This document shows positions 1 through 12,295 of a stretch of 12,295 nucleotides of DNA, in pieces (positions within the stretch are counted from its first letter, which is position 1; every line of letters begins with the position of its first letter). The notes under the pieces were generated by a model. That model saw only the letters and a list, made by a program, of their open reading frames with translations. It did no database searches and was not told where the DNA came from. The translations under genes were made by a program, and so were the position numbers. The DNA is from a virus (Duplodnaviria > Heunggongvirae > Uroviricota > Caudoviricetes). The DNA lies in the IMG/VR virus record IMGVR_UViG_2529292735_000007; one strand, given 5' to 3'.

Positions 1-31
1 TATCGCACACGCAAATAACGGAGATACAAAA

Positions 32-442
32 ATGCACGCAAAAGAAGAAGGTATCATCAGAGCACTGAAAGAAATTTCAAAGACAGAAAACGAAGTAGCG
101 AAAAAAGCCGTGGCAAATGCACATATGGACGTCGCAACCCACACACTGATAGTCGCAAGAGTCACGGCAGAAGCAGCCGAAATTATCGCAAAACAGGATG
201 CTGAACTGGCGGTTCTCAGAACACAACCAGTCACCGGACTGGATTTGTCTAACACCGGACGCCTTATTTACACAATTGGCTCGGAGCTACAGCGATACAC
301 CATTATCGCCGGATTACAGGATAAATACCTGATCACTCCTCACCCCATAAGGGAATCAGAAATTCTGACAAATCTCCGCCTGATAGAGCGCTCTCAAGTC
401 GCATTCATTGATGACGCACAGCGCACCGTATTTAACGCATAG
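32..442 (+). CDS. hypothetical protein, first gene of the plus-strand small-gene operon
   Basis: 136-aa ORF from the six-frame track; ATG at 32 preceded by a GGAG-containing stretch; no recognisable catalytic or DNA-binding motif by eye. Confidence 0.45.
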   Translation: MHAKEEGIIRALKEISKTENEVAKKAVANAHMDVATHTLIVARVTAEAAEIIAKQDAELAVLRTQPVTGLDLSNTGRLIYTIGSELQRYTIIAGLQDKYLITPHPIRESEILTNLRLIERSQVAFIDDAQRTVFNA

Positions 443-465
443 GGTTACTGGACAAAGGGGGCGCA

Positions 466-669
466 GTGGCAATTAAGCGTTTTTCCGTCATTCGTTTCAC
501 CTCCAGAGGGCGTGAATACGAAGTTGACGAACGGCTGATTAAAACGATCGACCGTCACCGTTCGCAACCTGACGCGCATCACATTTATCTCACTGACGAC
601 ACTTACTTCTGCGCCACCAACGTGGTGCAGGTGAATCTTATCAGACTGGTACAGGAGTCACGCAGATGA
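466..669 (+). CDS. small hypothetical protein (67 aa)
   Basis: GTG start at 466 with AAGGGGG Shine-Dalgarno about 6 nt upstream; stop TGA overlaps the ATG of the next ORF (ATGA at 666-669), suggesting translational coupling. Confidence 0.4.
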   Translation: MAIKRFSVIRFTSRGREYEVDERLIKTIDRHRSQPDAHHIYLTDDTYFCATNVVQVNLIRLVQESRR

Positions 670-911
670 CCATTCTGGACTACATCGCCGCCAATCCGGG
701 TTGTAGCGGTGGAGAAATCGCCGCAGCACTGAATACCCCAACCACAGCCATTAATGCGGAGTTACGCCGACTCTGGCGCAGCGGTTCAGTCATAAGAAAA
801 GAGCGCAAAACAGGTGGTCGCTTTTCTTACCAGATAAACCCGATGCCGTTCGGGTGCGGCAATCCACTTACCAACATGTTTAACCAGCTACTGAAGGAAG
901 CCAGAGCATGA
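666..911 (+). CDS. putative winged-helix DNA-binding protein (81 aa)
   Basis: Translation LDYIAANPGCSGGEIAAALNTPTTAINAELRRLWRSGSVIRKERKTGGRFSYQI has the helix / helix-turn-helix / beta-wing layout typical of small winged-helix regulators; start and stop both overlap neighbours by ATGA. Confidence 0.5.
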   Translation: MTILDYIAANPGCSGGEIAAALNTPTTAINAELRRLWRSGSVIRKERKTGGRFSYQINPMPFGCGNPLTNMFNQLLKEARA

Positions 912-1207
912 GCACCATCAACCACCAGGAACTACGCGAACTGGCGACTGACCTGCAACGAATGGCAACGCATCAAAAATTACTGGCGTTTCGCGCAATG
1001 CTCTCGCCATCTGCCGTGCTGGCACTGCTGGATGAGCTGGAGCACGCCAGAACCATGGCTCCTGCCATTCGTCTGACGCTCCATCATGAAATCAAGGATT
1101 TCTGCGCGACGCTGGAGTCACCAGGTGAATCAGAAACGCCGGAAGCAATGCAGCAGGAGCTGCTGCAACGCATCGACAACGTTTTCGATTTTTTCCTTAA
1201 CCAGTAA
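908..1207 (+). CDS. hypothetical protein (99 aa)
   Basis: ORF translationally coupled to the upstream gene (ATGA at 908-911); helical, acidic C-terminus; no motif recognised. Confidence 0.45.
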   Translation: MSTINHQELRELATDLQRMATHQKLLAFRAMLSPSAVLALLDELEHARTMAPAIRLTLHHEIKDFCATLESPGESETPEAMQQELLQRIDNVFDFFLNQ

Positions 1208-1221
1208 GGGAGTAAATCACA

Positions 1222-1773
1222 ATGAAACTCAAACCAATGGGTACACCTGGTGTGGCTCCGGCACATGTAAAACCATGGACACAGCAGGAGGATGAACTTT
1301 TAGCCACGTTATACCACTCCCACACAGCGCCGGAGCTGACAAAGCACCTTCAGAGAACCGAGTCAGCAATACGAAGTCGCATCCGTCTTTTGCTCTCTCA
1401 GGGGGTTATTCACGCCAAACGCCCCCACCTGAGCACAAAAGAACTCAGCATGCTCATCAGGAATCGCCACACAAAAACTATCCGGGAACTCGCGAATGAG
1501 CTGGGGCGCTCGCCATCCACGGTGGAACTGAACCTGAGAAAAAGAGGGTATCGGTTCAGGAAATACGGGGAACTCCACCACAGAACCAGATACAGCGATC
1601 ACCTGGTGGAGTTGGTAACTGAACTGCGTGATGAGAAGGGGATGACATTCAGCGAAATCAGGAAGCACATCCGGGACACAGCCGGGATATCCCTTAAAAG
1701 ATGGGTTCCCGCCCGGCTTTACGCACGATATACCGCCGCTGACACCGTGCTTTGCGAACTGCTACCGGACTGA
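1222..1773 (+). CDS. hypothetical DNA-binding protein with three tandem HTH-like repeats (183 aa)
   Basis: ATG at 1222 preceded by AAGGGAG; three roughly 45-aa segments each carrying a T-x-x-E-[LI]-x-x-x-[LIH]-x-R-[ST]-x-x-[ST]-[IV] pattern (TAPELTKHLQRTESAIRSRI, TIRELANELGRSPSTVELNL, TFSEIRKHIRDTAGISLKRW). Confidence 0.5.
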   Translation: MKLKPMGTPGVAPAHVKPWTQQEDELLATLYHSHTAPELTKHLQRTESAIRSRIRLLLSQGVIHAKRPHLSTKELSMLIRNRHTKTIRELANELGRSPSTVELNLRKRGYRFRKYGELHHRTRYSDHLVELVTELRDEKGMTFSEIRKHIRDTAGISLKRWVPARLYARYTAADTVLCELLPD

Positions 1774-2093
1774 GTAACCACTATGCACACACAAAAAAAC
1801 CGCTTGCCATGCCGCAATCAGTCAGGTTACATTTCCGCTGCGCCTCATAAAACGGGTGCCGGGATTGGAACCCCGCTGACAACCAAAGCGCACAACCGCG
1901 CCAGCGGTTTTTTTGTGCGTACCGTATCGCCACGTCTTTTTCGCACACGAATTATGGTGAGGCGTACGGGGCCGACTTCGGTCGGGCCGGGTTCTTTGGT
2001 TGCCGGTAGTTCCAACCCTGTACGTCTCACCACCCCGAGCTTGGAACCTCTGGATGGTGAGTTTTCAAAACTTACAACCAAAGAGGCCACACC
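1774..2093 (+). promoter_or_regulatory. structured non-coding region (candidate small RNA, attenuator or leader) between the small-gene operon and the replication module
   Basis: No ORF with protein-like composition or Shine-Dalgarno; contains a GC hairpin with UUCG loop (CCGAC-TTCG-GTCGG, about 1970..1988), complementary segments GTTCCAACC (about 2009..2017) / TTGGAACC (2041..2048) and CTCACCA (about 2029..2035) / TGGTGAG (about 2055..2061), and repeated CAACCAAAG. Confidence 0.3.
1893..1915 (+). terminator. putative rho-independent terminator
   Basis: ACCGC-gcca-GCGGT hairpin (1895..1908) immediately followed by a run of 7 T (1908..1914); lies about 120 nt downstream of the stop at 1773. 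Confidence 0.4.
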
Positions 2094-2324
2094 ATGGCAA
2101 ACCGCAAACAGCACCGCGCTATCGCGGAGCGTCGTCACATCCAGACTGAAATCGATCGCAGACTCACCCGCGCCGCACACATCGCCTTTATCATGCAATC
2201 CAACACATTGCACAGACTCAACAGCACTATTTCAGCCGACTACTGCGCCGCTGTATTCAGCTATCTGGCGGAAGACCTCCTGTCTCTTCAGGATCTCATC
2301 CAGCAGCAAAACAAACTCCATTAA
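2094..2324 (+). CDS. small hypothetical protein (76 aa)
   Basis: ATG at 2094 with AAGAGG Shine-Dalgarno 7 nt upstream; helical, protein-like composition (MANRKQHRAIAERRHIQTEIDRRLTRAAH...), unlike the overlapping low-complexity 205-aa ORF. Confidence 0.4.
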   Translation: MANRKQHRAIAERRHIQTEIDRRLTRAAHIAFIMQSNTLHRLNSTISADYCAAVFSYLAEDLLSLQDLIQQQNKLH

Positions 2325-2396
2325 TTCCTGTTCCGGGCCTTTCCTGCACCTTGCGGCGGGAGGCCTTCGCACATCTGTAACCAGAGGATTGCCGCA

Positions 2397-2762
2397 ATGA
2401 TTCTCGCCAACGACTTTCTTGAATACCTGCTCAACACAGAGCGTGATCTTGCCGTTCGCGTGCGTGACCGTTATGACATGTACCTGAAATCCCTGCCTGT
2501 ACCGCAGCTCGCTGACGGAAAGATTGTTATTGATGGCCGCTACATGATTGACAGCCACGAGGGAAATTACAGGCTTTACCGCATTGAAGGTGGCACCCCG
2601 TCCGTTATTGGCATTTACCAGCGCCCATCCTCTGCAATCGTCGATGTGATTGCCGACAGCATCCGCATCACACATCGCCATGCCGACACAGAAGACACCG
2701 TGCTGGAAATTCAGCGGCTGGCTGCCGTCTGCCGCGACACCCTGAATGGCATGACGAAGTAA
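2397..2762 (+). CDS. hypothetical protein (121 aa) immediately upstream of the replication initiator
   Basis: ATG at 2397 with AGAGGA upstream; ends 6 nt before the start of the rep gene, consistent with co-transcription; no motif recognised. Confidence 0.5.
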   Translation: MILANDFLEYLLNTERDLAVRVRDRYDMYLKSLPVPQLADGKIVIDGRYMIDSHEGNYRLYRIEGGTPSVIGIYQRPSSAIVDVIADSIRITHRHADTEDTVLEIQRLAAVCRDTLNGMTK

Positions 2763-2768
2763 ATCACT

Positions 2769-5591
2769 ATGACGGCAGAGTACATCAGGGACTGGCAACA
2801 ACCGCGCCACGCGGTGGGGCGTGAAGGAACGGGGATCCCCGCTCCTGAATCCGCGCTTTCCTCCTGGCTGGGTGCCTACCGGGTAGAGAACGAGCGCCGC
2901 CAGGAAATGGCTGATGCGGCGTTCTCCGCCACGCCGCTGGGCAACCTGATTAATAAAAGCCTGGACGCACAGAAAAAACAGGACAAAACCATCACACTGG
3001 CAGGAGACGCCAGAAAACAGGCACGCGGCGCGGTGGATGAAGCCATGGCCTCGCTGCGCCTGCTGCCGTCCTATCTGCGCGATCCGCTTATTCGCCACCT
3101 CTCCTTCCTGCGCAAAAAACAGGAAGCCGATCGCCGGAAAGGCAAAAAGAGCTGGCAGGCGGAACGCTATGCACGCGGAACCCTGCGCAAAATATTCGAA
3201 CGTCTGGACCGCACTGATCACCGCTGGCTGACACCGGATTATCGCTCCCTTGCTGGACGCGAACGCCTGGACGATTTGCTTTACCTGCCGCAGCTCAACA
3301 AACACCAGATACAGACGCTGGCCACCATGACGGCGGCGATGTTCAGCAGCACCTTCGAAAAACTCTGCGATGGCTTTGGCGCGACTGATGGCGAACTGAC
3401 CATGGATGTAACGCTGAAGGCGTATCAGATGCTGGCCCGCATGGCGTTACACCTGCACGCCATGCCTCCACATTATGACGCACTGACAACAGACAAAGAC
3501 CGGAGGAACGAACCGGACACAGAGCTGCTGCCGGGCGCAATCCTTCGCCTGACCTGTGCGGAATGGTGGAAACGCAAACTATGGCTGTTACGTTGCGAGT
3601 GGAGAGAAGAACAACTCCGCGCCGCCTGTCTGGTTTCCAGAAAAACATCGCCCTATCTGAGCCAGGACGCGTTAAGCGAGTTTCGCGCACAGCGCGAGAA
3701 AACACGCGATTTCCTGAAAAGTTTCATGCTGGAAAACGAAGACGGGTTCACGATTGATCTCGAGACAGTGTATTACGCGGGAGTAAGTAACCCGGTTCAC
3801 CGTAAGGCAGAAATGATGGCCACCATGAAGGGACTGGAACTTCTGGCCGAAGCCCGTGGCGACAGAGCGGTGTTTCTGACTGTCACCTGCCCGTCAAAAT
3901 ACCACGCAACAACGGAGAACGGTCATCCGAACCCCAAATGGAACGGGGCCACCATGCGCGACTCCAGCGATTACCTGGTTAACACGTTTTTTGCGGCGGT
4001 CCGCAAAAAACTGAACCGCGACGGCCTGCGCTGGTATGGCATCCGCACGGTGGAGCCTCACCATGACGGCACCGTGCACTGGCATATGATGGTCTTTGCT
4101 CATCCGGAAGAAATCGACACCATTGTGTCCCACGTCCGCGATATTGCCATTCAGGAAGACCGCCACGAGCTGGGCAATGATATTACTCCACGCTTTAAAG
4201 TGGAGTATGTCGACGGCTCAAAAGGCACACCAACCAGCTATATCGCGACCTACATCGGGAAAAACCTGGACAGCCGCGCCGTGGATGGCATCGACCCGAA
4301 AACGGGCAAACCACGCGTTGACCACGAAACCGGAAAATCAATGGCCGAGAGCGTGGAGCGCGCCATCGGTTGGGCACGCCTTCACCGGGTCCGCCAGTTC
4401 CAGTTCTTTGGCATCCCCTCCCGTCAGGTGTGGCGTGAACTCCGCCGCCTTGCCAGCCAGATGGCACGCAACCCGGAAGGCCCGCAACGGCTGAAGGATG
4501 ACGCAATGGATGCGGTACTCGCTGCCGCTGATGCCGGATGTTTTGCCACCTACATAGAGAAACAGGGCGGCGTACTTGTTCCACGCAAAGACTACCTGAT
4601 TCGCACCGCCTACGACCTCGCCGATGAGCTGAACGATTACGGCGAACAGAGTGTACAGATTTACGGGATCTGGTCACCACTCATCGGGGAATCCTCCCGT
4701 GTGTGCACGCACCCGGATAACTGGAAGCTGGTAAGACGTAAACCGGAACAGGAAGGCAGCGCCCACGAAAATGGTTTTGACCTTCAGGGCGGCCCTGCCG
4801 CCCCTTGGACTCGTGGCAATAACTGTCCCAGTGTACAGGAAACAGACAACAACGGGACAGAACAGCCGGAAGAACGGCCAGCACCGTGGCCGCAGCTTCC
4901 TGACGGCATTGAAGTGAATGAATGGATGCACTCACTGAAACGGCACGAACGCCGGGCGCTGATGCGTTCGCTGCGTGACAAACAGGCCAAAAACAGCAGC
5001 GATGAAATGCAGAACTGGACGCAGAGCCGCAAACAGCCGCGGCCTTTGCCTGATAACCACGAGTTACTCGCTAAAGAATGGCGGGAGTCTGCTGAATCTC
5101 TCGGCCTGCATATTGGTGAACAGCAGATGCAGCACCTGTTACGGGGCGGCAGTCTGTACGTTGACGGCAGCATCATTGCACCGCAGGGATTTGAAATTGT
5201 ACGCAAACCGGATACCCGCCCGGACAGCCGAATCACGCAGCTCTGGCAGCGCCTGAGCCGTAATCACGGCGTAAGCAGCACGGAGATCCGCCATAACCCG
5301 GTCGCCAGCTATCTGGAACAGCTGGGGGCATCAGACCCTGAAGCCGCCGCACGCCTGGCATCCACACTTCAGCAGGACCAGAACACCATGAAAACACCCG
5401 TTACCGTGCTTTCTGACATGCTGCGCGCCATCCGCGACGCAGAGCACGCACAGAGAATCAGTGAAACCACTGAACGCGCCCGCCGCAAAGCAGACCTGCT
5501 GCGGGGTGGCCTGACCAGTGGAAACAAAAAACAGACAGAAACGGGATTCACAAATCCCGTAAATGAGCAAAAAACGCGCCGCGATATATGA
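2769..5591 (+). CDS. A: rolling-circle replication initiator (HUH-type endonuclease, P2 gpA / phiX174 gpA superfamily I), 940 aa
   Basis: Translation contains EPHHDGTVHWHMMVFAHPEE (HWH at nt 4077..4085) and the paired active-site tyrosines in SYIATYIGKN (Tyr codons 4239..4241 and 4251..4253, Y-x3-Y spacing as in phiX174 gpA YVAKYV); position upstream of the Q-P-O head genes matches P2-like prophage order. Confidence 0.85.
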   Translation: MTAEYIRDWQQPRHAVGREGTGIPAPESALSSWLGAYRVENERRQEMADAAFSATPLGNLINKSLDAQKKQDKTITLAGDARKQARGAVDEAMASLRLLPSYLRDPLIRHLSFLRKKQEADRRKGKKSWQAERYARGTLRKIFERLDRTDHRWLTPDYRSLAGRERLDDLLYLPQLNKHQIQTLATMTAAMFSSTFEKLCDGFGATDGELTMDVTLKAYQMLARMALHLHAMPPHYDALTTDKDRRNEPDTELLPGAILRLTCAEWWKRKLWLLRCEWREEQLRAACLVSRKTSPYLSQDALSEFRAQREKTRDFLKSFMLENEDGFTIDLETVYYAGVSNPVHRKAEMMATMKGLELLAEARGDRAVFLTVTCPSKYHATTENGHPNPKWNGATMRDSSDYLVNTFFAAVRKKLNRDGLRWYGIRTVEPHHDGTVHWHMMVFAHPEEIDTIVSHVRDIAIQEDRHELGNDITPRFKVEYVDGSKGTPTSYIATYIGKNLDSRAVDGIDPKTGKPRVDHETGKSMAESVERAIGWARLHRVRQFQFFGIPSRQVWRELRRLASQMARNPEGPQRLKDDAMDAVLAAADAGCFATYIEKQGGVLVPRKDYLIRTAYDLADELNDYGEQSVQIYGIWSPLIGESSRVCTHPDNWKLVRRKPEQEGSAHENGFDLQGGPAAPWTRGNNCPSVQETDNNGTEQPEERPAPWPQLPDGIEVNEWMHSLKRHERRALMRSLRDKQAKNSSDEMQNWTQSRKQPRPLPDNHELLAKEWRESAESLGLHIGEQQMQHLLRGGSLYVDGSIIAPQGFEIVRKPDTRPDSRITQLWQRLSRNHGVSSTEIRHNPVASYLEQLGASDPEAAARLASTLQQDQNTMKTPVTVLSDMLRAIRDAEHAQRISETTERARRKADLLRGGLTSGNKKQTETGFTNPVNEQKTRRDI

Positions 5592-5636
5592 AGCGCGCAC
5601 AAAACAGGCAAAAACGGGATTTCAGAATCCCGTAAA
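5538..5636. promoter_or_regulatory. parC-like operator/centromere: two copies of a 20-bp palindrome upstream of parM
   Basis: AAACGGGATTcacaAATCCCGTAAA (palindrome 5541..5560) and AAACGGGATTtcagAATCCCGTAAA (palindrome 5614..5633), 73 bp apart centre to centre, flanked by CAAAAAAC-type A-tracts; the first copy lies inside the 3' end of the rep CDS. Confidence 0.45.
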
Positions 5637-5667
5637 CGATTAATTAATCAACATAAGGAAAAGCGAC

Positions 5668-6627
5668 ATGAAAATTTGTATCGACGACGGCTCCACCAAC
5701 ATCAAGCTGGCATGGACTGAGAACGGCGAACGCCGCAACGCCATCAGCCCGAACAGCTTCAAGTCGGAATGGTCTGCGCCGTTCGGTGGCACGCAGCCCG
5801 CGAACTACATGCTTGATGGCGTGCGCTATGGTTTTGATCCGGTCAGCGATCGCTTTGTCCAGACGACCGACACGCAATACCAGTACAGTGATGTGAATGT
5901 CATTGCCATTCATCACGCACTGGTCAAATCAGGCATCACGCCACAGGAGGTGGATGTGGTTGTCACCCTGCCACTGAGCGAGTATTTCGACACAAACGCA
6001 CAGCCGGACATGGCCAACATCAACCGCAAAAAAGCGAACGTTATGCGCCCGGTGGAGTACCAGAACGGCGAAGCATTCACTATCCGTAACGTGCGGGTTA
6101 TGCCTGAATCCATTCCGGCTGGCTTTAAAGCACTGGCTGACATGAGTCCGTTTGAATCCCTGCTGATTGTGGATTTAGGCGGAACCACGCTGGATGTGGC
6201 AAAGGTTCAGGGACAACTGGCAGGTATCAGCCAGGTGTTTTGCGATCCACACGTAGGCGTTTCCCTGATGGCCGATGCCGTACTGTCGGTGATGGCCACT
6301 AACGGTATGCGTACCAGTCACCACATCGCCAATACCATTATCGAACATCGCCATGATGAAGCCTGGTTGCGCCAACACATCCACAATGACGCGCATTACG
6401 CCAGCCTGATGGCGGTTATTCGTGAAAAGGAAGAAACACTGAAACAACGCGTGATCCGCGCGCTGGCGGGTTTTTCGGGTTACGGACGGGTGATGGTTGT
6501 CGGTGGTGGGGCGGAGATTGTGGCACCCGCTATCCGCGAAGCCTGCGGAGTTAATGCGACTTTCATCGCGGACGGGGTGCCACAGTTTGCTCTGGTTAAT
6601 GGGCTGTACGCAATGGACAAGGAGTAA
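5668..6627 (+). CDS. parM: ParM/StbA-family actin-like segregation ATPase (type II partition), 319 aa
   Basis: AAGGAAAA Shine-Dalgarno then ATG; translation matches plasmid R1 ParM as recalled from memory along its length (ICIDDGSTNIKLAW, ISPNSFK, QYSDVNVIAIHHAL, VMPESIPAGF, LLIVDLGGTTLDV, GVSL, VVGGGAE, LVNGLYA). Confidence 0.9.
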   Translation: MKICIDDGSTNIKLAWTENGERRNAISPNSFKSEWSAPFGGTQPANYMLDGVRYGFDPVSDRFVQTTDTQYQYSDVNVIAIHHALVKSGITPQEVDVVVTLPLSEYFDTNAQPDMANINRKKANVMRPVEYQNGEAFTIRNVRVMPESIPAGFKALADMSPFESLLIVDLGGTTLDVAKVQGQLAGISQVFCDPHVGVSLMADAVLSVMATNGMRTSHHIANTIIEHRHDEAWLRQHIHNDAHYASLMAVIREKEETLKQRVIRALAGFSGYGRVMVVGGGAEIVAPAIREACGVNATFIADGVPQFALVNGLYAMDKE

Positions 6628-6631
6628 ACCA

Positions 6632-6946
6632 ATGACGACACCAACCAGACGGATAAGTTTCTATCTGAAGCCCGCCGCCGTCAATAGTGAACGGAAGGCG
6701 TGTAATTACCTCGACAGCCTGCCAGCCTCTGAACGCAGCCGCGCGCAACGCGCGGCCTTTCTGGCCGGGCTGGCACTCATAAAACGCGATCCTGCATTTG
6801 CCTATTGGTTGGCCGAATGGCCGGAAGAAGGAGCTGCGCCAGCAAAGAATAATATTCAGAGTAAATATGCCAGCACACCTGCCACCGGAAGCAATCACAG
6901 CACTAGCGAGATAAGAAAGAACATTCAGTCATTTTTCCCGGAGTGA
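6632..6946 (+). CDS. parR: ParR-like ribbon-helix-helix centromere-binding protein / partition adaptor, about 105 aa
   Basis: ATG at 6632, 4 nt after the parM stop; N-terminus RRISFYLKPAAVNSERKACNYLDSLPASERSRAQRAAFLAGLALIKRDP resembles R1 ParR (RTIAFKLNPDVNQ...LDSIPQGERSRLNRAALTAGLALYRQDP, from memory); the track ORF 6497..6946 is the same frame extended upstream. Confidence 0.75.
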   Translation: MTTPTRRISFYLKPAAVNSERKACNYLDSLPASERSRAQRAAFLAGLALIKRDPAFAYWLAEWPEEGAAPAKNNIQSKYASTPATGSNHSTSEIRKNIQSFFPE

Positions 6947-6965
6947 AAACAGGAGAGGTGCATCT

Positions 6966-7397
6966 ATGGCAACTATTCCCAAAAAATGGTTACAACGCAA
7001 AATCGCAGACCTTGAATCGTGTCGTGAAGACATCCCATTTGGCCTTGATGAAAACGATCACAATATGTTAATCGCACTGAAAATCGCACTCACATCGCTG
7101 GAAGCGAAACCTGTTGCATGGACTGATGATGAGGAACTGCGTGATGTCAAGCAGTATGGTTTCGGTGAGATATTTCAGTGTCCGCCAGATAAATACGCGG
7201 ACCCGCGCCGTGTTATCCCTATGTATCAAGAGCCGCCAGCGCCAGCAGTACCAGATGGGCTGGTTAGAGCGGTGCGTTTCTATGAACAGGTTAAGCGTGA
7301 AAATCCGCCAGCCGAAACCGGAGCATGGAAAGACGCTGTTGACTGGGTGCTCAAAGAGGCTTGCCAAGCTGTAAACATTGGCATCAAAGGAGAGTGA
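6966..7397 (+). CDS. hypothetical protein (143 aa), accessory-locus cargo gene 1
   Basis: ATG at 6966 with AGGAGAGG Shine-Dalgarno 7 nt upstream; contains the motif IALTSLEAKPVAW shared with the gene at 7690; proline-rich middle (YQEPPAPAVPDG). Confidence 0.6.
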   Translation: MATIPKKWLQRKIADLESCREDIPFGLDENDHNMLIALKIALTSLEAKPVAWTDDEELRDVKQYGFGEIFQCPPDKYADPRRVIPMYQEPPAPAVPDGLVRAVRFYEQVKRENPPAETGAWKDAVDWVLKEACQAVNIGIKGE

Positions 7398-7398
7398 T

Positions 7399-7686
7399 AT
7401 GGCAACTTTGCAGGAATTAATCGACCTGACGCCAGAACAGGAAAAAGCGTGGAATCGCCTTGTGAAGGCTGTAAAGGATTTCAGGGCAGCCGGAGGAAAG
7501 TTTTATAGCGTCCTGGACACGCTGAGCGCATACAACGGCGAGCACGTAGCCAGCATTGATAACGATAAGGGCTACCACACTGCAAGCGTTTATATGCCTA
7601 GCATTGATGCGCCAGGGCTAACCAGTTGGGCTGATGATTGGCACGGCATCACGCTGAAAGATGGCGTTGAAGTGGATGAGGACTAA
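7399..7686 (+). CDS. hypothetical protein (95 aa), accessory-locus cargo gene 2
   Basis: ATG at 7399 (1 nt after the previous stop) with AAAGGAGAG Shine-Dalgarno; acidic C-terminus; the track ORF 7378..7686 is the same frame with an alternative upstream start. Confidence 0.55.
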   Translation: MATLQELIDLTPEQEKAWNRLVKAVKDFRAAGGKFYSVLDTLSAYNGEHVASIDNDKGYHTASVYMPSIDAPGLTSWADDWHGITLKDGVEVDED

Positions 7687-7689
7687 CAC

Positions 7690-7950
7690 ATGACAACTTT
7701 CACCGACAAAGAACTGATTAAAGAAATCAAAGAGCGCATAGGTAGCCTGGACGTGAGAGACAATATTGAACGCCGTGCTTATGAAATTGCTCTGGTATCG
7801 CTGGAAGCAGAGCCAGTAGCATGGATGCATGTAAATAACGGCATCGGAATACCAGCAATAACAATGAGTAAAGAGGTTGCAGAGAGTTGGTTATCAAAAG
7901 GCTGGTATGTCCAACCCTTACATCTAGCCCAGCCTGCATCAAAGCTATAG
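7690..7950 (+). CDS. hypothetical protein (86 aa), accessory-locus cargo gene 3, paralogous motif to gene 1
   Basis: ATG at 7690 with GAGGA 7 nt upstream; contains IALVSLEAEPVAW (compare IALTSLEAKPVAW in 6966..7397); followed by a terminator hairpin. Confidence 0.55.
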   Translation: MTTFTDKELIKEIKERIGSLDVRDNIERRAYEIALVSLEAEPVAWMHVNNGIGIPAITMSKEVAESWLSKGWYVQPLHLAQPASKL

Positions 7951-7960
7951 AAATGAGCCA

Positions 7961-7983
7961 AAACGCCCTCTTCCAGGGCGTTT
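7961..7983 (+). terminator. rho-independent terminator closing the accessory operon
   Basis: AAACGCCCT-cttcc-AGGGCGTTT hairpin followed by ATTTCAA; begins 11 nt after the stop at 7950. Confidence 0.5.
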
Positions 7984-7990
7984 ATTTCAA

Positions 7991-8017
7991 TGCACAATAG
8001 TGCACAAATTTGCACAA
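7991..8017. repeat. three direct repeats of TGCACAA at exact 10-bp phasing
   Basis: TGCACAA at 7991, 8001 and 8011 (tgcacaaTAGtgcacaaATTtgcacaa), one helical turn apart, followed by a T7 run; looks like a phased protein-binding array. Confidence 0.6.
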
Positions 8018-8029
8018 TTTTTTTGAACG

Positions 8030-8441
8030 ACTTTTTGCCCTTCCGGCCCGCGGGGCGACTGGATCCGTCAAGGATCCGTGCGTGCACAAAAAAACGCGTT
8101 TTTTCTGCGCGCAGGTGACGGGGGAACAGCCCGCGTTTCAGGGGGTAAATAGCGTTCCCTTAACGATGTCGCAGCGACACGACAGAATGGCCGTATTTCT
8201 CACGCTGAGCGTGAAAAATACGTGAGGGCTTTTGATTTGATGGGGTGAAAGGTAAGGCCGTCAAAATCGCACTGAGGCGGCGAGAACATGCAGTCAGCGC
8301 AGTGGGATTGCGTAAGAGTCTGACCGTCGATGATGGCAATAAGCAGGAAAGCGTCGTGAAATTATCTGACTGATACAGGAGCTGGAGAGTCGGGGCATAA
8401 ATTTTTTATGCCCCGGCGAAGCAGCAGACAAGCGAAGCGCG
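8030..8441. other. non-coding region downstream of portal gene Q; expected location of cos and packaging signals
   Basis: No credible ORF; contains GGATCCGT direct repeats (about 8062..8079), the perfect palindrome AAAAAACGCGTTTTTT (8089..8104) and a GCGGGG-containing stretch (about 8047..8056) only loosely similar to the P2/186 cohesive-end sequence as recalled; the exact cos site could not be identified. Confidence 0.3.
8392..8414. terminator. palindromic hairpin about 28 nt downstream of the Q stop (possible bidirectional terminator)
   Basis: GGGGCATAAA-ttt-TTTATGCCCC perfect inverted repeat; lacks a clean external U-tract on either strand, so the terminator call is tentative. Confidence 0.35.
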
Positions 8442-9461
8442 TCAGGATGTGGGCTGGGTGTCTAACAGTGCGTAAGGGTTAAAGCGGATCACCTCTTCGC
8501 CAAGCCAGTCATTGATGTGCTTCATGGCCTCCATGACGGGCATCAGCTCGTTAATTGCGTAAACCCGCGCGGCCTTCTCCACATCACCAAGCGCACTTTT
8601 TTCGCCCGGCATCGCCCCCATCAGTTGCGGCGGAACGCGGTGCGCAGCCAGCACATCATCACGGGATGCCGCCTTAACATTCATGAACTCATCTTTTGCG
8701 GTGATCTGCTGGAACGGCAAAATTTGCACCCCCTCTTTGCCCCCGTTGGGCGCATGAATGAGCACGTTTTTAAACGCACCACCACCACGTGCACCCTGTA
8801 GCGTTTCTTTCAGGGAGTCCATGCTTTCGCGGTTTACCTGCGCTGCACCGATGTAGATGATGCACCCGGCGTGGGATCCGTTGTCGTAATACAGTTTTCT
8901 GAACATGTCCGCCGAATGAGACAGGCTGGCCGAGAGTAATGCGCCGAGATATTCCGGCATGCCGTAGATTTCCTGGTTAATGTCAGGATTCATCAGGTGG
9001 CACACTTTGCCAGGGCGAAACTGAAACGCGTCCTTGCCATCCTGCACATACCACCATGATTCAAGATCGCTTCCGCGTCGCATGTATTTCGCCAGGGCGT
9101 GCCGTAATTTAAGCGGTTCGCCGAGCATATTACTCCGAAGCTCAAGGAATGCGTTACCGAACACAAAACAGTCCAGCGCCAGCGCCGAGAAATCCTGCCG
9201 GGAAAGCAGCGGGTGCGGGATGTAGCAACCGAGTAATACATTGCGCTTAAAGTAAAGCGCAGACTGATGCCAGGACGTTTGCCGGGCAGCTCTTGCCAGA
9301 CCGTACCAGTCCACCGGGGTTTCATACCACCGCCCGTTATCAGCACAGTACATATTGTCCAGCAGGTCATGCCCGGTCAGGCGATAAGGCCCATCAAATG
9401 TGAATGCACTGAGCGACGATTCATTCCTGAGCGCATCAGCGAGATCAATGCGTGAACTCAT
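8442..9461 (-). CDS. Q: portal protein (P2 gpQ-like), about 339 aa
   Basis: Long minus-strand ORF directly downstream of the terminase large subunit gene and divergent from scaffold/capsid genes, as in P2 (Q-P leftward, O-N rightward); size matches gpQ; start placed at the first ATG (9461..9459, MSSRIDLADAL...), whereas the track ORF extends to 9572 via a non-ATG start. Confidence 0.8.
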   Translation of the reverse strand: MSSRIDLADALRNESSLSAFTFDGPYRLTGHDLLDNMYCADNGRWYETPVDWYGLARAARQTSWHQSALYFKRNVLLGCYIPHPLLSRQDFSALALDCFVFGNAFLELRSNMLGEPLKLRHALAKYMRRGSDLESWWYVQDGKDAFQFRPGKVCHLMNPDINQEIYGMPEYLGALLSASLSHSADMFRKLYYDNGSHAGCIIYIGAAQVNRESMDSLKETLQGARGGGAFKNVLIHAPNGGKEGVQILPFQQITAKDEFMNVKAASRDDVLAAHRVPPQLMGAMPGEKSALGDVEKAARVYAINELMPVMEAMKHINDWLGEEVIRFNPYALLDTQPTS

Positions 9462-9486
9462 GCGCACTTTTTTATTTTTCTGCTCA

Positions 9487-11240
9487 TCAGAACTCCATAA
9501 CCGTGAAACGCTCGTTTTCTCCTTCGCCGCCAATTGGTTCGTTAATGACAGCAAGCATGGTTGCCCACGCAAGGTCGCCGTGGCTGATCCCCCTCGCGCG
9601 GTCCGTTTCGTAAGTGATAAAGCCGCCCGGTGTTTTCACCTTACGCACGGCGTTAAAGGCTGCGACCAGTTCGCGTTCGGCGCGATCGTATTCCCACCGC
9701 CCGGCACGCATTATTTGCAGCATTTTCAGTACCAGCGACCGTTTTGATGACAGCGTGAAGGTGTACGGAATAGCAGCAGGGAAAAACCGTTTCACTATCT
9801 GATAAACAGCCTCCCGTTCCCGCCCGTCACATCAATGCCGATGTGTTCCACGTTGTAGCGACACGTGAACTCTTCAATGACTCTGGCCTGTTCTTCAAAC
9901 TCCAGCCCCTGAACGCGTCGCGTCTCCACCGTTCGAAAACGGCCACCAGGAACAGCCGGAGGGACCACCACGGACACCGCGCCGCTGTCGCCGTTGCCAC
10001 TGCTGCCGTTTGCGTCATACCCAATCCATACCGGGCGATTCCCCATCGGGCGGGGAGCAAAAGGTTTCCAGTCTTTCCAGTCGTCGTATCCGTCAACACC
10101 GCAGCCAATCAGGATATTCAGGTTAAATGCCGATTCCCCTTCGCGGACAAACTCACACATATAGAGATTGAGGAACTCGTCTTCGGTGTTTTCATCACGA
10201 ATTTCGTCGATATCGGTGTGTTTCCAGCCGTGATTAACCACATCTTCCAGCGTGACAATTTGCCGCCACGTCCGGTCAGGGCAGATAAGCCCGTTATGCA
10301 GCGTTTTCCAGTCCACAGAAAAACGCTGGCGTTTATGCGTGGCCTTTTCTCGTTCCAGCGGTCGCCGTTCCAGTAGGCGTATGCCTCGTGCGTTTCGGTG
10401 GATGGCGTGGAGAAGTAGGTGCGCCGCAGTCCGCTGAGGGTTGCCATAGCGCCAGCCACCTTGCGCAGTTCAGCAAAGCGACTAACCCAGAAAAATTCAT
10501 CAAAATAAAAATTGCCCGTATAGGACTGTGCCGACGCAGCAGAAGTGCCGAGAAAATGCAGCTCTGCGCCGTTTGAGAGGATGATTTTATCGCCCCCTTT
10601 CAGCTCCACATCAACTTCAGCCGCGGCCTTCTGAATAATGCTTTTAAACTGGAACGCCTGACGACGCGACGCAGACAAAAAAATCTGGTTACGCTGGTAA
10701 GGTTGCGCCACATCGTCACGCAGCGCCATCAGCAGTGCTTCCTGTGCAAAATACCAGGTCGCCCCAATCTGTCGGGATTTCAGGATCATCCTGTTACGTA
10801 TCCCGGCTTCCCTGCAAAGGGTCAGGGCGTCAAACCAGCCCCGCTGATGCCACTCCAGCCTGCTGATGATTTTTTCCCGCAGTGCGGCAATCTTGTTCCG
10901 GCGTGAAATGATTTTTTAAGTTTTTTTCGCCCCGGCTTTTCTTTCCTGTGGCCGTCGCATCCGGCTGGTCATTATGCAGTTTTTTAAGCTGCCGGGTCAG
11001 CAGGTCTATTTCCTTGAAGTCACCACCTGTTTTATTCTGTTTTTCAGTAAGCTGGATGAGGCGCGCATCGATGGACTGCGTGACACGCTGCACGGGTGGC
11101 GTTTCATCCCACTGATCGCGTTTTTTCCACGCATAAATCGTGTTCGGGTTTATTCCCATCAGACGTGATATTTCTGCGGGCGGATAACCCTGCCAGTAAA
11201 GTTGTCGCGCACGCTGGCGCACAAAAGCGTCCTGAATCAT
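9487..11240 (-). pseudogene. P: terminase large subunit (P2 gpP-like) split into four reading frames by at least three frameshifts
   Basis: Four consecutive minus-strand ORFs (10830..11240, 10118..10789, 9795..10316, 9487..9795) together span about 588 codons; the N-terminal HTH (YWQGYPPAEISRLMGINPNTIYAWKK), ATPase-like core (LSNGAELHFLGTSAASAQSYTGNFYFDEFFW) and nuclease-like IGIDVTGG sit in different frames; junctions lie at homopolymer runs. Confidence 0.75.
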
Positions 11241-11401
11241 TGCTCCCCCTGAGTAATTACAGGAAGATTACCCGCGCGCGAAACCGTTCTCCTTAACCCC
11301 CTGTTCTGGCTGTTTTCTTACAACAAAAGCCCTTTGTATCAGCCTGTTACGCTTTGCCATCATGACTGAAGAACCAGTCAGAGGGGCAAAAACTATGGCT
11401 A

Positions 11402-12230
11402 ATGAAAAAGACATCCCGCAAAAAGTTTCGCGTGGCTGTCTCCGGATCAACTGTTGATGGACGCGAAATCAGCCCGGTACATCTGCGTGAAGCCGCCGAG
11501 AACTTCAACCCGGATGTTTACGCTGCCCGCGTGAACGTTGAGCACTATCTCTCGCCATGCCCGTCAAGCGAATTTTCCGCAATGGGCGATGTCACCGCAC
11601 TGAGTACGGAAGATATTACGGAAGGCCCGCTGGCCGGACGTACTGCGCTGTATGCAGAAATCGAACCGACCGAGCGCATGAAGCAGCTTGTCGCTGACGG
11701 CAAGAAAATCTATTCCAGTATCGAACTGCACCCGCAGTTCTCCGTTAACGGGCGCGCCTATCTGGTCGGGCTGGCGATGACCGACACCCGGCAAGCCTCG
11801 GGCACTGAGCGCCTGAAATTCACGGCACAGCAACGTCAGGCGGTGATGACGTTCAACAGTGTCCAGGGTGAGGCACCGCTTATTTCCGAAGCCATCGAGT
11901 CTGAAATCATCGAAATGGCAGAACAACGCCAGGAAGAAGGCACCCAGTGGTTTAACCGCGTAATGGGGATTATTGGTCGTGGCCGCAAAAGCGGATGACG
12001 CCAGTTTCTCCCGTATTCAGGAAGCGGTGGAAGGCGTCGCAACGTCACAGGCCGACATTATCGACCGTTTTAATGTGCTGGAAACCCGCCATCAGCAGGA
12101 CCGCCAGAAAATCACGTCACTGACCACAGAGCTGGCAGCACTGAAGGAAAAACTGCGCACGCAGGACGGCGATCCGCAGAACCGCTTCACCGCAACAGGT
12201 GCAGCCTCCGACCAGCTGGCTGACTTCTGA
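11402..12230 (+). pseudogene. O: capsid scaffold protein (P2 gpO-like), interrupted by a frameshift near 11990
   Basis: N-terminus MKKTSRKKFRVAVSGSTVDGREIS and internal YLVGLAMTD resemble P2 gpO as recalled (…FRIGVEGDTCDGRVIS…, …YLVGLAVTD…); the frame stops at 11998 and the homologous C-terminal part (AAKADDASFSRIQEAV…) continues in another frame to 12230; an ATG at 11395 with better Shine-Dalgarno spacing (GAGGGG) is out of frame, suggesting a second indel at the start. Confidence 0.7.
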
Positions 12231-12253: not shown

Positions 12254-12295
12254 ATGAATCTGGTGATGTCAGATATTACCCGCAACAAGCTGGGT
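12254..12295 (+). CDS. 5' end of the next head gene (major capsid gpN expected by synteny), truncated by the window edge
   Basis: AAGGAG Shine-Dalgarno then ATG at 12254, 24 nt after the scaffold stop; only 14 codons visible, so identity rests on gene order alone. Confidence 0.35.
   Translation, partial: MNLVMSDITRNKLG

Follow-up and report, generated by a model that had tools for sequence, protein, structure and literature searches.

Homopolymer-length indels in the head genes of a P88-like prophage contig of Escherichia coli DEC14C: probable consensus error rather than gene decay

Background

The closest described relatives of the element analysed here belong to the P88 / Xuanwuvirus group: P88 itself (NC_026014), P88_4B11 (NC_049391) and Citrobacter phage Shae_phiSM (OR565851). 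In P88-type records a GPA-family rep gene is followed by parM with its partner gene and by a cargo slot; the portal gene Q and the terminase gene P then lie on one strand, and the scaffold gene O and capsid gene N on the other. Q, P and O are single open reading frames (ORFs) of 348, 583 and 278 aa. The stretch of DNA that we analysed, hereafter the window, is 12,295 bp long, has the same gene order and is 97.8-98.8% identical to these phages over portal, terminase and scaffold (for P88 and P88_4B11 this is nucleotide identity over 3.9 kb of structural genes). It differs from them by 11 indels spread across those three genes.

The original prediction, which drew attention to the broken frames, offered two readings: a cryptic prophage whose packaging genes have truly become pseudogenes while replication and partition persist, or localised homopolymer sequencing error. 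Both have counterparts elsewhere. Genuine prophage decay proceeds by IS insertions, large deletions and an accumulation of non-synonymous changes. Cryptic or defective P2-family prophages that have lost packaging are non-inducible and retain rep and par genes, and with packaging lost the element in the window would resemble them; however, its affected genes are without marks of decay once the indels are reverted. Pockets of residual homopolymer error, for their part, have been reported from repeat regions of polished long-read and hybrid assemblies (PMC8812927), and run-length variation in 454 data may be an artefact, for which Sanger confirmation is needed (PMC4746626). The window is like assemblies with such errors in that run lengths change by one or two bases in both directions, within one assembly and in otherwise perfectly conserved genes, and in that the pocket lies in sequence likely to be repeated within the genome. 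It is unlike them in one detail, an extra C at 11799 that extends no run.

The element and its genes

The window corresponds from end to end to contig AIHM01000044.1 in draft assembly GCA_000250455.2, which represents E. coli DEC14C, a strain in the 2012 DECA collection (announced by Hazen et al. 2012, J Bacteriol 194:3026); the GenBank proteins on it include EHX89571.1 and EHX89573.1. According to the ORF listing and similarity searches it carries part of a P88-like prophage (Xuanwuvirus, Peduoviridae, P2-family), and neither end of the contig reaches beyond the prophage. A GPA-family rep and a ParM-type partition module (PF05840, PF06406/PF21523, PF10784) stand upstream of the cargo slot. 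The head module is of the P2 type, portal and terminase on one strand and the gpO scaffold and capsid gene divergent from them, as judged by Pfam matches to Phage_portal, Terminase_5/6N/6C and Phage_GPO and by synteny with annotated relatives. Within the P88/Xuanwuvirus group the element is nothing out of the ordinary. Besides early genes, the prophage segment has the features listed below.

2769-5591, + strand: replication endonuclease rep, GPA family, 940 aa, intact (Pfam; no private indels)
5668-6627, + strand: ParM, 319 aa, intact (Pfam; no private indels)
6632-6946, + strand: Plasmid_stab_B partner of ParM, 104 aa, intact (Pfam; no private indels)
6778-7990: variable cargo slot
8442-9487, - strand: portal Q (gpQ homologue), 348 aa at intact length, native start out of frame
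9487-11240, - strand: terminase large subunit P (gpP homologue), 583 aa at intact length, four ORFs here
11395-12230, + strand: capsid scaffold/protease O (gpO homologue), 278 aa at intact length, two ORFs here
from near 12254, + strand: capsid gene N, first 42 nt only, truncated by the contig end

An exact look-up of the Rep protein returned AIHM01000044.1 as its sole carrier, with no copy of the prophage in a sister strain. The 143-aa cargo protein, looked up in the same exact way, led to ten more relatives, and in all of them Q, P and O are intact. Complete E. coli genomes hold up to 4 copies of the P2-family head module per genome.

Eleven private indels

The indels were placed by global and BLAST alignments to about 15 intact relatives (14-16 references): P88, P88_4B11, Shae_phiSM, two complete E. 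coli chromosomes and the ten prophages that share the cargo gene. A comparison with intact terminase and scaffold genes had been proposed at the outset, and it resolved the breaks into 11 private indel events, all between 9474 and 11987 (at 9474, 9812, 10344, 10893, 10912, 10921, 10930, 11404, 11786, 11799 and 11987). In the list below the coordinates are those of the altered bases, and the run length in the references is given before that in the window.

Indel 1, 9475-9479: T6 to T5, in codon 5 of portal Q (A6 to A5 on the coding strand)
Indel 2, 9813-9815: C4 to C3, in the C-terminal domain of terminase P
Indel 3, 10345-10348: T5 to T4, in terminase P
Indel 4, 10893: T to TT, in terminase P, shifting the frame
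Indel 5, 10912-10917: T5 to T6, in terminase P
Indel 6, 10921-10927: T6 to T7, in terminase P
Indel 7, 10930-10933: C3 to C4, in terminase P
Indel 8, 11405-11409: A7 to A5, a 2-nt deletion in codons 4-6 of scaffold O
Indel 9, 11787-11789: C4 to C3, in scaffold O
Indel 10, 11799: extra C extending no run, in scaffold O
Indel 11, 11987-11990: A3 to A4, in scaffold O, the frameshift that splits the gene

All events except the one at 11799 alter the length of a single-base run (10 of 11), so the impression that the breaks sit near homopolymers was accurate. Six are insertions and five are deletion events; 6 bases come in and 6 go out, and the net length is that of the references. Four single-base over-calls fall within 38 nt of P (10893-10933), and the insertions at 10930, 10921 and 10912, which come first in gene orientation and lie within a 19-nt stretch, add up to one additional codon. 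In O, the indels at 11787-11789 and 11799 form a -1/+1 pair, 13 nt apart, which scrambles 4 codons. These compensating indels, the triple insertion in P and the pair in O, had been overlooked in the original prediction.

Effects on the three genes

Terminase P is read on the - strand as four ORFs (10830-11240, 10118-10789, 9795-10316 and 9487-9795), which map colinearly onto the Pfam domains Terminase_5, Terminase_6N and Terminase_6C. The gene had been described as split across four frames; the four ORFs are indeed there, but they use three reading frames and not four. Intact 583-aa homologues of P occupy the same location in all relatives. For O, the reported split in two frames holds: the ORFs at 11402-11998 and 11973-12230 on the + strand divide Phage_GPO between them (2-189 and 188-267 of the Pfam model). 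A likely indel at the start of the scaffold gene had also been suspected, and this is the 2-nt deletion in the A7 run, which throws the native ATG at 11395 out of frame and leaves a new in-frame ATG at 11402.

We disagree with the statement that the portal gene is uninterrupted. A 1-nt deletion at codon 5 displaces its native ATG at 9487, from which only nine codons can now be read before a stop. The long portal ORF at 8442-9572 is open only by the chance openness of the upstream frame, and the GenBank call is a protein of 339 aa that starts at Met10, at 9461. The contrast originally drawn, with packaging genes broken but the portal whole, is therefore wrong, since one of the indels sits in portal codon 5. 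On the other hand, rep (2769-5591) and parM (5668-6627) are uninterrupted as stated, and there are 0 gaps between positions 3-6777 and Shae_phiSM.

Confinement of the indels to 2.5 kb

All 11 events fall within 2,514 nt of the 12.3 kb, which has a chance probability of about 1e-7. Among runs of at least 4 bases, 7 of 51 are altered inside this region versus 0 of 127 outside it (Fisher p = 1e-4). Such clustering is well beyond chance. The alignments to the references gave 0 private indels in the remaining ~9.7 kb: the part aligned with phage Shae_phiSM (3-6777) is free of gaps, positions 6778-7990 are 100% identical to four other prophages, and positions 7991-9473 contain 0 private indels. A generally low quality of the assembly was considered and rejected on the same ground, no private indel being found in those ~9.7 kb.

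Counted against the 14-16 references, private indel events in the affected region number 11 and private substitutions 1, which is synonymous; outside it, 0 private indels stand against 6 private substituted positions. Among spontaneous mutations of bacteria indels are the minority class, and a ratio of 11 indels to 1 substitution in 2.5 kb is unlike neutral decay.

The repaired proteins

Once the 11 indels are undone, the amino acid sequences of P (583 aa) and O (278 aa) match intact proteins of E. coli EC21Z-048 (WP_000613802.1 and WP_001262672.1) at 100% identity. At the nucleotide level there are 9 and 6 differences, and 15 of these 15 are synonymous. Purifying selection has acted in full on both genes until now. 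The usual signature of a pseudogene, with lesions spread over the genes and raised non-synonymous change, was not found in P and O, where amino acid changes number 0.

Search for the same indels elsewhere

The frameshifted protein fragments were found in this one contig alone among ~15 billion proteins, while 1092 full-length matches, the best at 99.0%, were found in complete E. coli genomes. Probes spanning four of the junctions (five indels) were compared with the 770-1081 complete E. coli genomes matched per probe. The junction of indel 2 (9813-9815) was seen in 0 of 1064 complete E. coli genomes, that of the indel 9/10 pair (11787-11799) in 0 of 843 and that of indel 11 (11987-11990) in 0 of 770. 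The junction of indel 3 (10345-10348) recurs in one complete genome out of 1081, that of DS26-1, in whose chromosome record the probe has two match sites. The exact 58-mer across the four insertions had 0 matches in the genome, viral and metagenome contig collections, and the plasmid collection returned solely relatives of the intact type, at most 98.1% identical.

The one genome that shares a junction deserves attention. In the P2-like prophage of E. coli DS26-1 (NZ_CP035879), homopolymers in P, O and N have lost a single base at nine places, and the NCBI annotation marks these three genes, together with M, as frameshifted; the portal gene and the chromosomal flanks are clean. This prophage belongs to the same family as the one in the window, and like it has terminase and scaffold genes broken by single-base indels; in DS26-1 the capsid gene is broken as well. 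Two RefSeq phages, 503458 and 500465-2 (NC_049341, NC_049343), likewise have terminase, scaffold and portal genes broken by single-base indels. In all three records, however, nearly all indels are deletions, and they lie at other sites than those of the window. The only runs altered in both DS26-1 and the window are the T5 at 10345 and the A7 at 11405. The DS26-1 pocket is of the kind known from repeats in polished long-read assemblies (PMC8812927).

The most probable explanation

In our opinion it is very probable that the 11 indels are consensus errors, confined to a single stretch of low quality close to the end of a short draft contig, and the Q, P and O genes of the underlying prophage are most likely intact. 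We favour an artefact because the indels are private, confined to 2.5 kb and of the run-length type, while the repaired proteins are identical to intact ones and substitutions are scarce. Of the two readings first offered, localised homopolymer error is thus the one we prefer, and the pocket is best filed as probable homopolymer-length error and not as a real biological feature.

As to how such errors could have arisen, over-calls and under-calls of run length may have survived where read support was thin or ambiguous. Mixed over- and under-calls are typical of flow-based chemistry, and with the burst of four over-calls and the -1/+1 pair they have the look of a weakly supported consensus of that type; the genomes of the DECA collection probably date from 454-era sequencing. 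The contig is short and begins and ends within the prophage, which suggests that the assembly broke where the sequence is common to a second P2-like prophage of DEC14C. In these phages no part is more conserved than the head module, so that reads would be thin or ambiguous there and miscalls could be retained. A uniform platform error rate alone leaves the restriction to 2.5 kb unexplained, and the account by low coverage or repeats is what we infer.

Alternative explanations

Real pseudogenisation would mean that packaging and head-assembly genes were lost by frameshift in a cryptic element that keeps replication and partition. The frameshifts are, after all, present in the deposited sequence, rep, parM and its partner are intact, homopolymer slippage is a genuine mutational mechanism, and the private substitutions in rep and portal are mostly non-synonymous. 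Nevertheless, we regard this reading as unlikely, and the evidence goes against it as it was originally put forward: the region shows no excess of substitutions, its 11 indels and single substitution stand beside ~9.7 kb free of indels, unlike neutral decay, and P and O, once repaired, do not differ from functional proteins by a single residue. Besides, compensating indels adjoin uncompensated ones, which is at odds with selection for compensation; the indels are absent from other assemblies, bar one site in the error-prone DS26-1 record; and the IS insertions and deletions typical of prophage decay were not seen in the window. Were the indels true, this would be an unusual case in which packaging was lost very recently and in a targeted manner while the rest of the prophage stayed intact; there is little support for it.

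The strong clustering of events at base runs could also be taken as the trace of a single mutational episode. In its most specific form, one burst of slippage, for instance in error-prone repair synthesis after a break at or near the adjacent cos site, would have inactivated Q, P and O at a stroke and made a pristine P88-like prophage non-packaging, with rep and ParM kept; this we hold to be very unlikely. More generally, error-prone repair of breaks near the cos/terminase cut or a defect in mismatch repair, to name two examples, would have caused localised slippage in the head module, and to this we give slightly less credence still. Here DS26-1 can be called upon, since homopolymer indels are likewise clustered there in P, O and N beside an intact portal, and if a burst were the true explanation, a second pocket in the same genes would hint at a recurrent process. 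However, DS26-1 has deletions only, whereas DEC14C has both insertions and deletions, and two sequencing chemistries fit this difference better than one biological process does. Nor does an excess of substitutions accompany the indels; the 1.0 kb of portal gene beside the presumed cos side is clean; and a mismatch-repair defect would be expected to act genome-wide and not on 2.5 kb. Functional recoding, in which programmed frameshifting or phase-variable homopolymer tracts would serve to express P and O, has in our view a negligible chance of being right. It is true that the shifts occur at base runs and that some of the indels compensate each other, but the runs are merely 3-7 nt long, and about six independent events in three genes would be required. 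Moreover, three of the four probed junctions are unshared in 770-1081 genomes and the fourth is found in one genome, so that there is no conserved split. Q, P and O are single ORFs (348, 583 and 278 aa) in all of the ~15 aligned relatives, and programmed frameshifting was rejected on this account.

Implications for surveys of prophages

The case calls for caution. In P2-family prophages, pockets of homopolymer error are present in draft-era contigs and even in some records that count as "complete" or RefSeq. Such pockets mimic pseudogenes, and surveys of prophage decay or domestication would therefore overcount defective prophages.

Private substitutions in rep and portal

Over the whole window, 5 of 6 private substitution events are non-synonymous, three in rep (E69K, G157D and T456V) and two in portal (W to C at 9168 and F to L at 8591). 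All five may be genuine rare variants or errors, or they may hint at relaxed selection across the prophage, with which the non-synonymous excess would also be compatible. Whatever their origin, the substitutions in rep and portal leave unexplained a cluster that consists of indels only and lies in perfectly conserved genes.

Frameshifted genes in related records

The portal, terminase and scaffold genes are also annotated as two to four pieces each in two RefSeq reference genomes of the same genus as the window prophage, Escherichia phage 503458 (NC_049341) and phage 500465-2 (NC_049343). Phage 503458 differs from the window by 31 indels, the window's own 11 included. Once these 11 are set aside, nearly every remaining difference is one base, in most cases a G, that is absent from 503458, and the missing bases are scattered across the whole 4 kb compared. 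This pattern looks like sequencing error extending throughout the 503458 record.

A further case is a P2-like prophage in a complete RefSeq chromosome, that of E. coli DS26-1 (NZ_CP035879, 5073109-5077762), where the genes for terminase, scaffold, capsid and small terminase are each annotated as frameshifted. The portal gene of that prophage and the chromosomal flanks are intact, and the alignment, which spans P, O and the beginning of N, places nine single-base homopolymer deletions in DS26-1. Indels of DS26-1 coincide with those of the window in two places, a T5 run (window position 10345) and an A7 run (11405).

Variation in the replication endonuclease and portal genes

The substitutions in rep that are private to the window (2973, 3238 and 4134-4135) are non-synonymous without exception. 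They give the amino-acid changes E69K, G157D and T456V, the last of which results from a dinucleotide change. When the exact sequence of the 940-aa Rep was looked up in a protein collection, no second contig was found to carry an identical protein. Among the relatives, rep varies in length by an in-frame 15 nt (window 3487-3511), which yields proteins of 935 or 940 aa. As this polymorphism shows, natural indels in this prophage come in multiples of three and lie outside base runs.

The portal gene, on the minus strand, has two non-synonymous substitutions that are private to the window when it is set against all 14 aligned references. At 9168 TGG has become TGT, so that a Trp found in every reference is replaced by Cys; at 8591 Phe is replaced by Leu. 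These may be either real variants or additional errors.

Cargo slot

6778-7990, cargo slot with three small ORFs, flanked by the partition module on one side and by the portal gene on the other
ORFs of 143, 95 and 86 aa in this slot, assigned to phrog_660, phrog_2821 and phrog_5117

None of the three ORFs has a match in Pfam or PADLOC. Several further E. coli prophages carry the slot at 100% identity, whereas in other relatives it holds a RelE/ParE toxin and HTH pair, an additional XF1762-family gene or a putative membrane protein.

Annotation and contig ends

Gene calls between 1222 and 2400 disagree between records. Where Shae_phiSM has a full DNA-binding protein of 183 aa (window 1222-1773), the DEC14C record has only a 55-aa gene (1606-1773). 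A regulator-like ORF of 205 aa at 1783-2400 (phrog_995/821) is uncalled in both records, which instead call an overlapping 76-aa ORF at 2094-2324; three relatives have the 205-aa gene called at the equivalent position.

Both ends of the contig (window 1 and 12254-12295) fall within the prophage, the 3' end 42 nt inside the P2-family capsid gene, which suggests assembly breaks at repeats that a second P2-like prophage in DEC14C shares.
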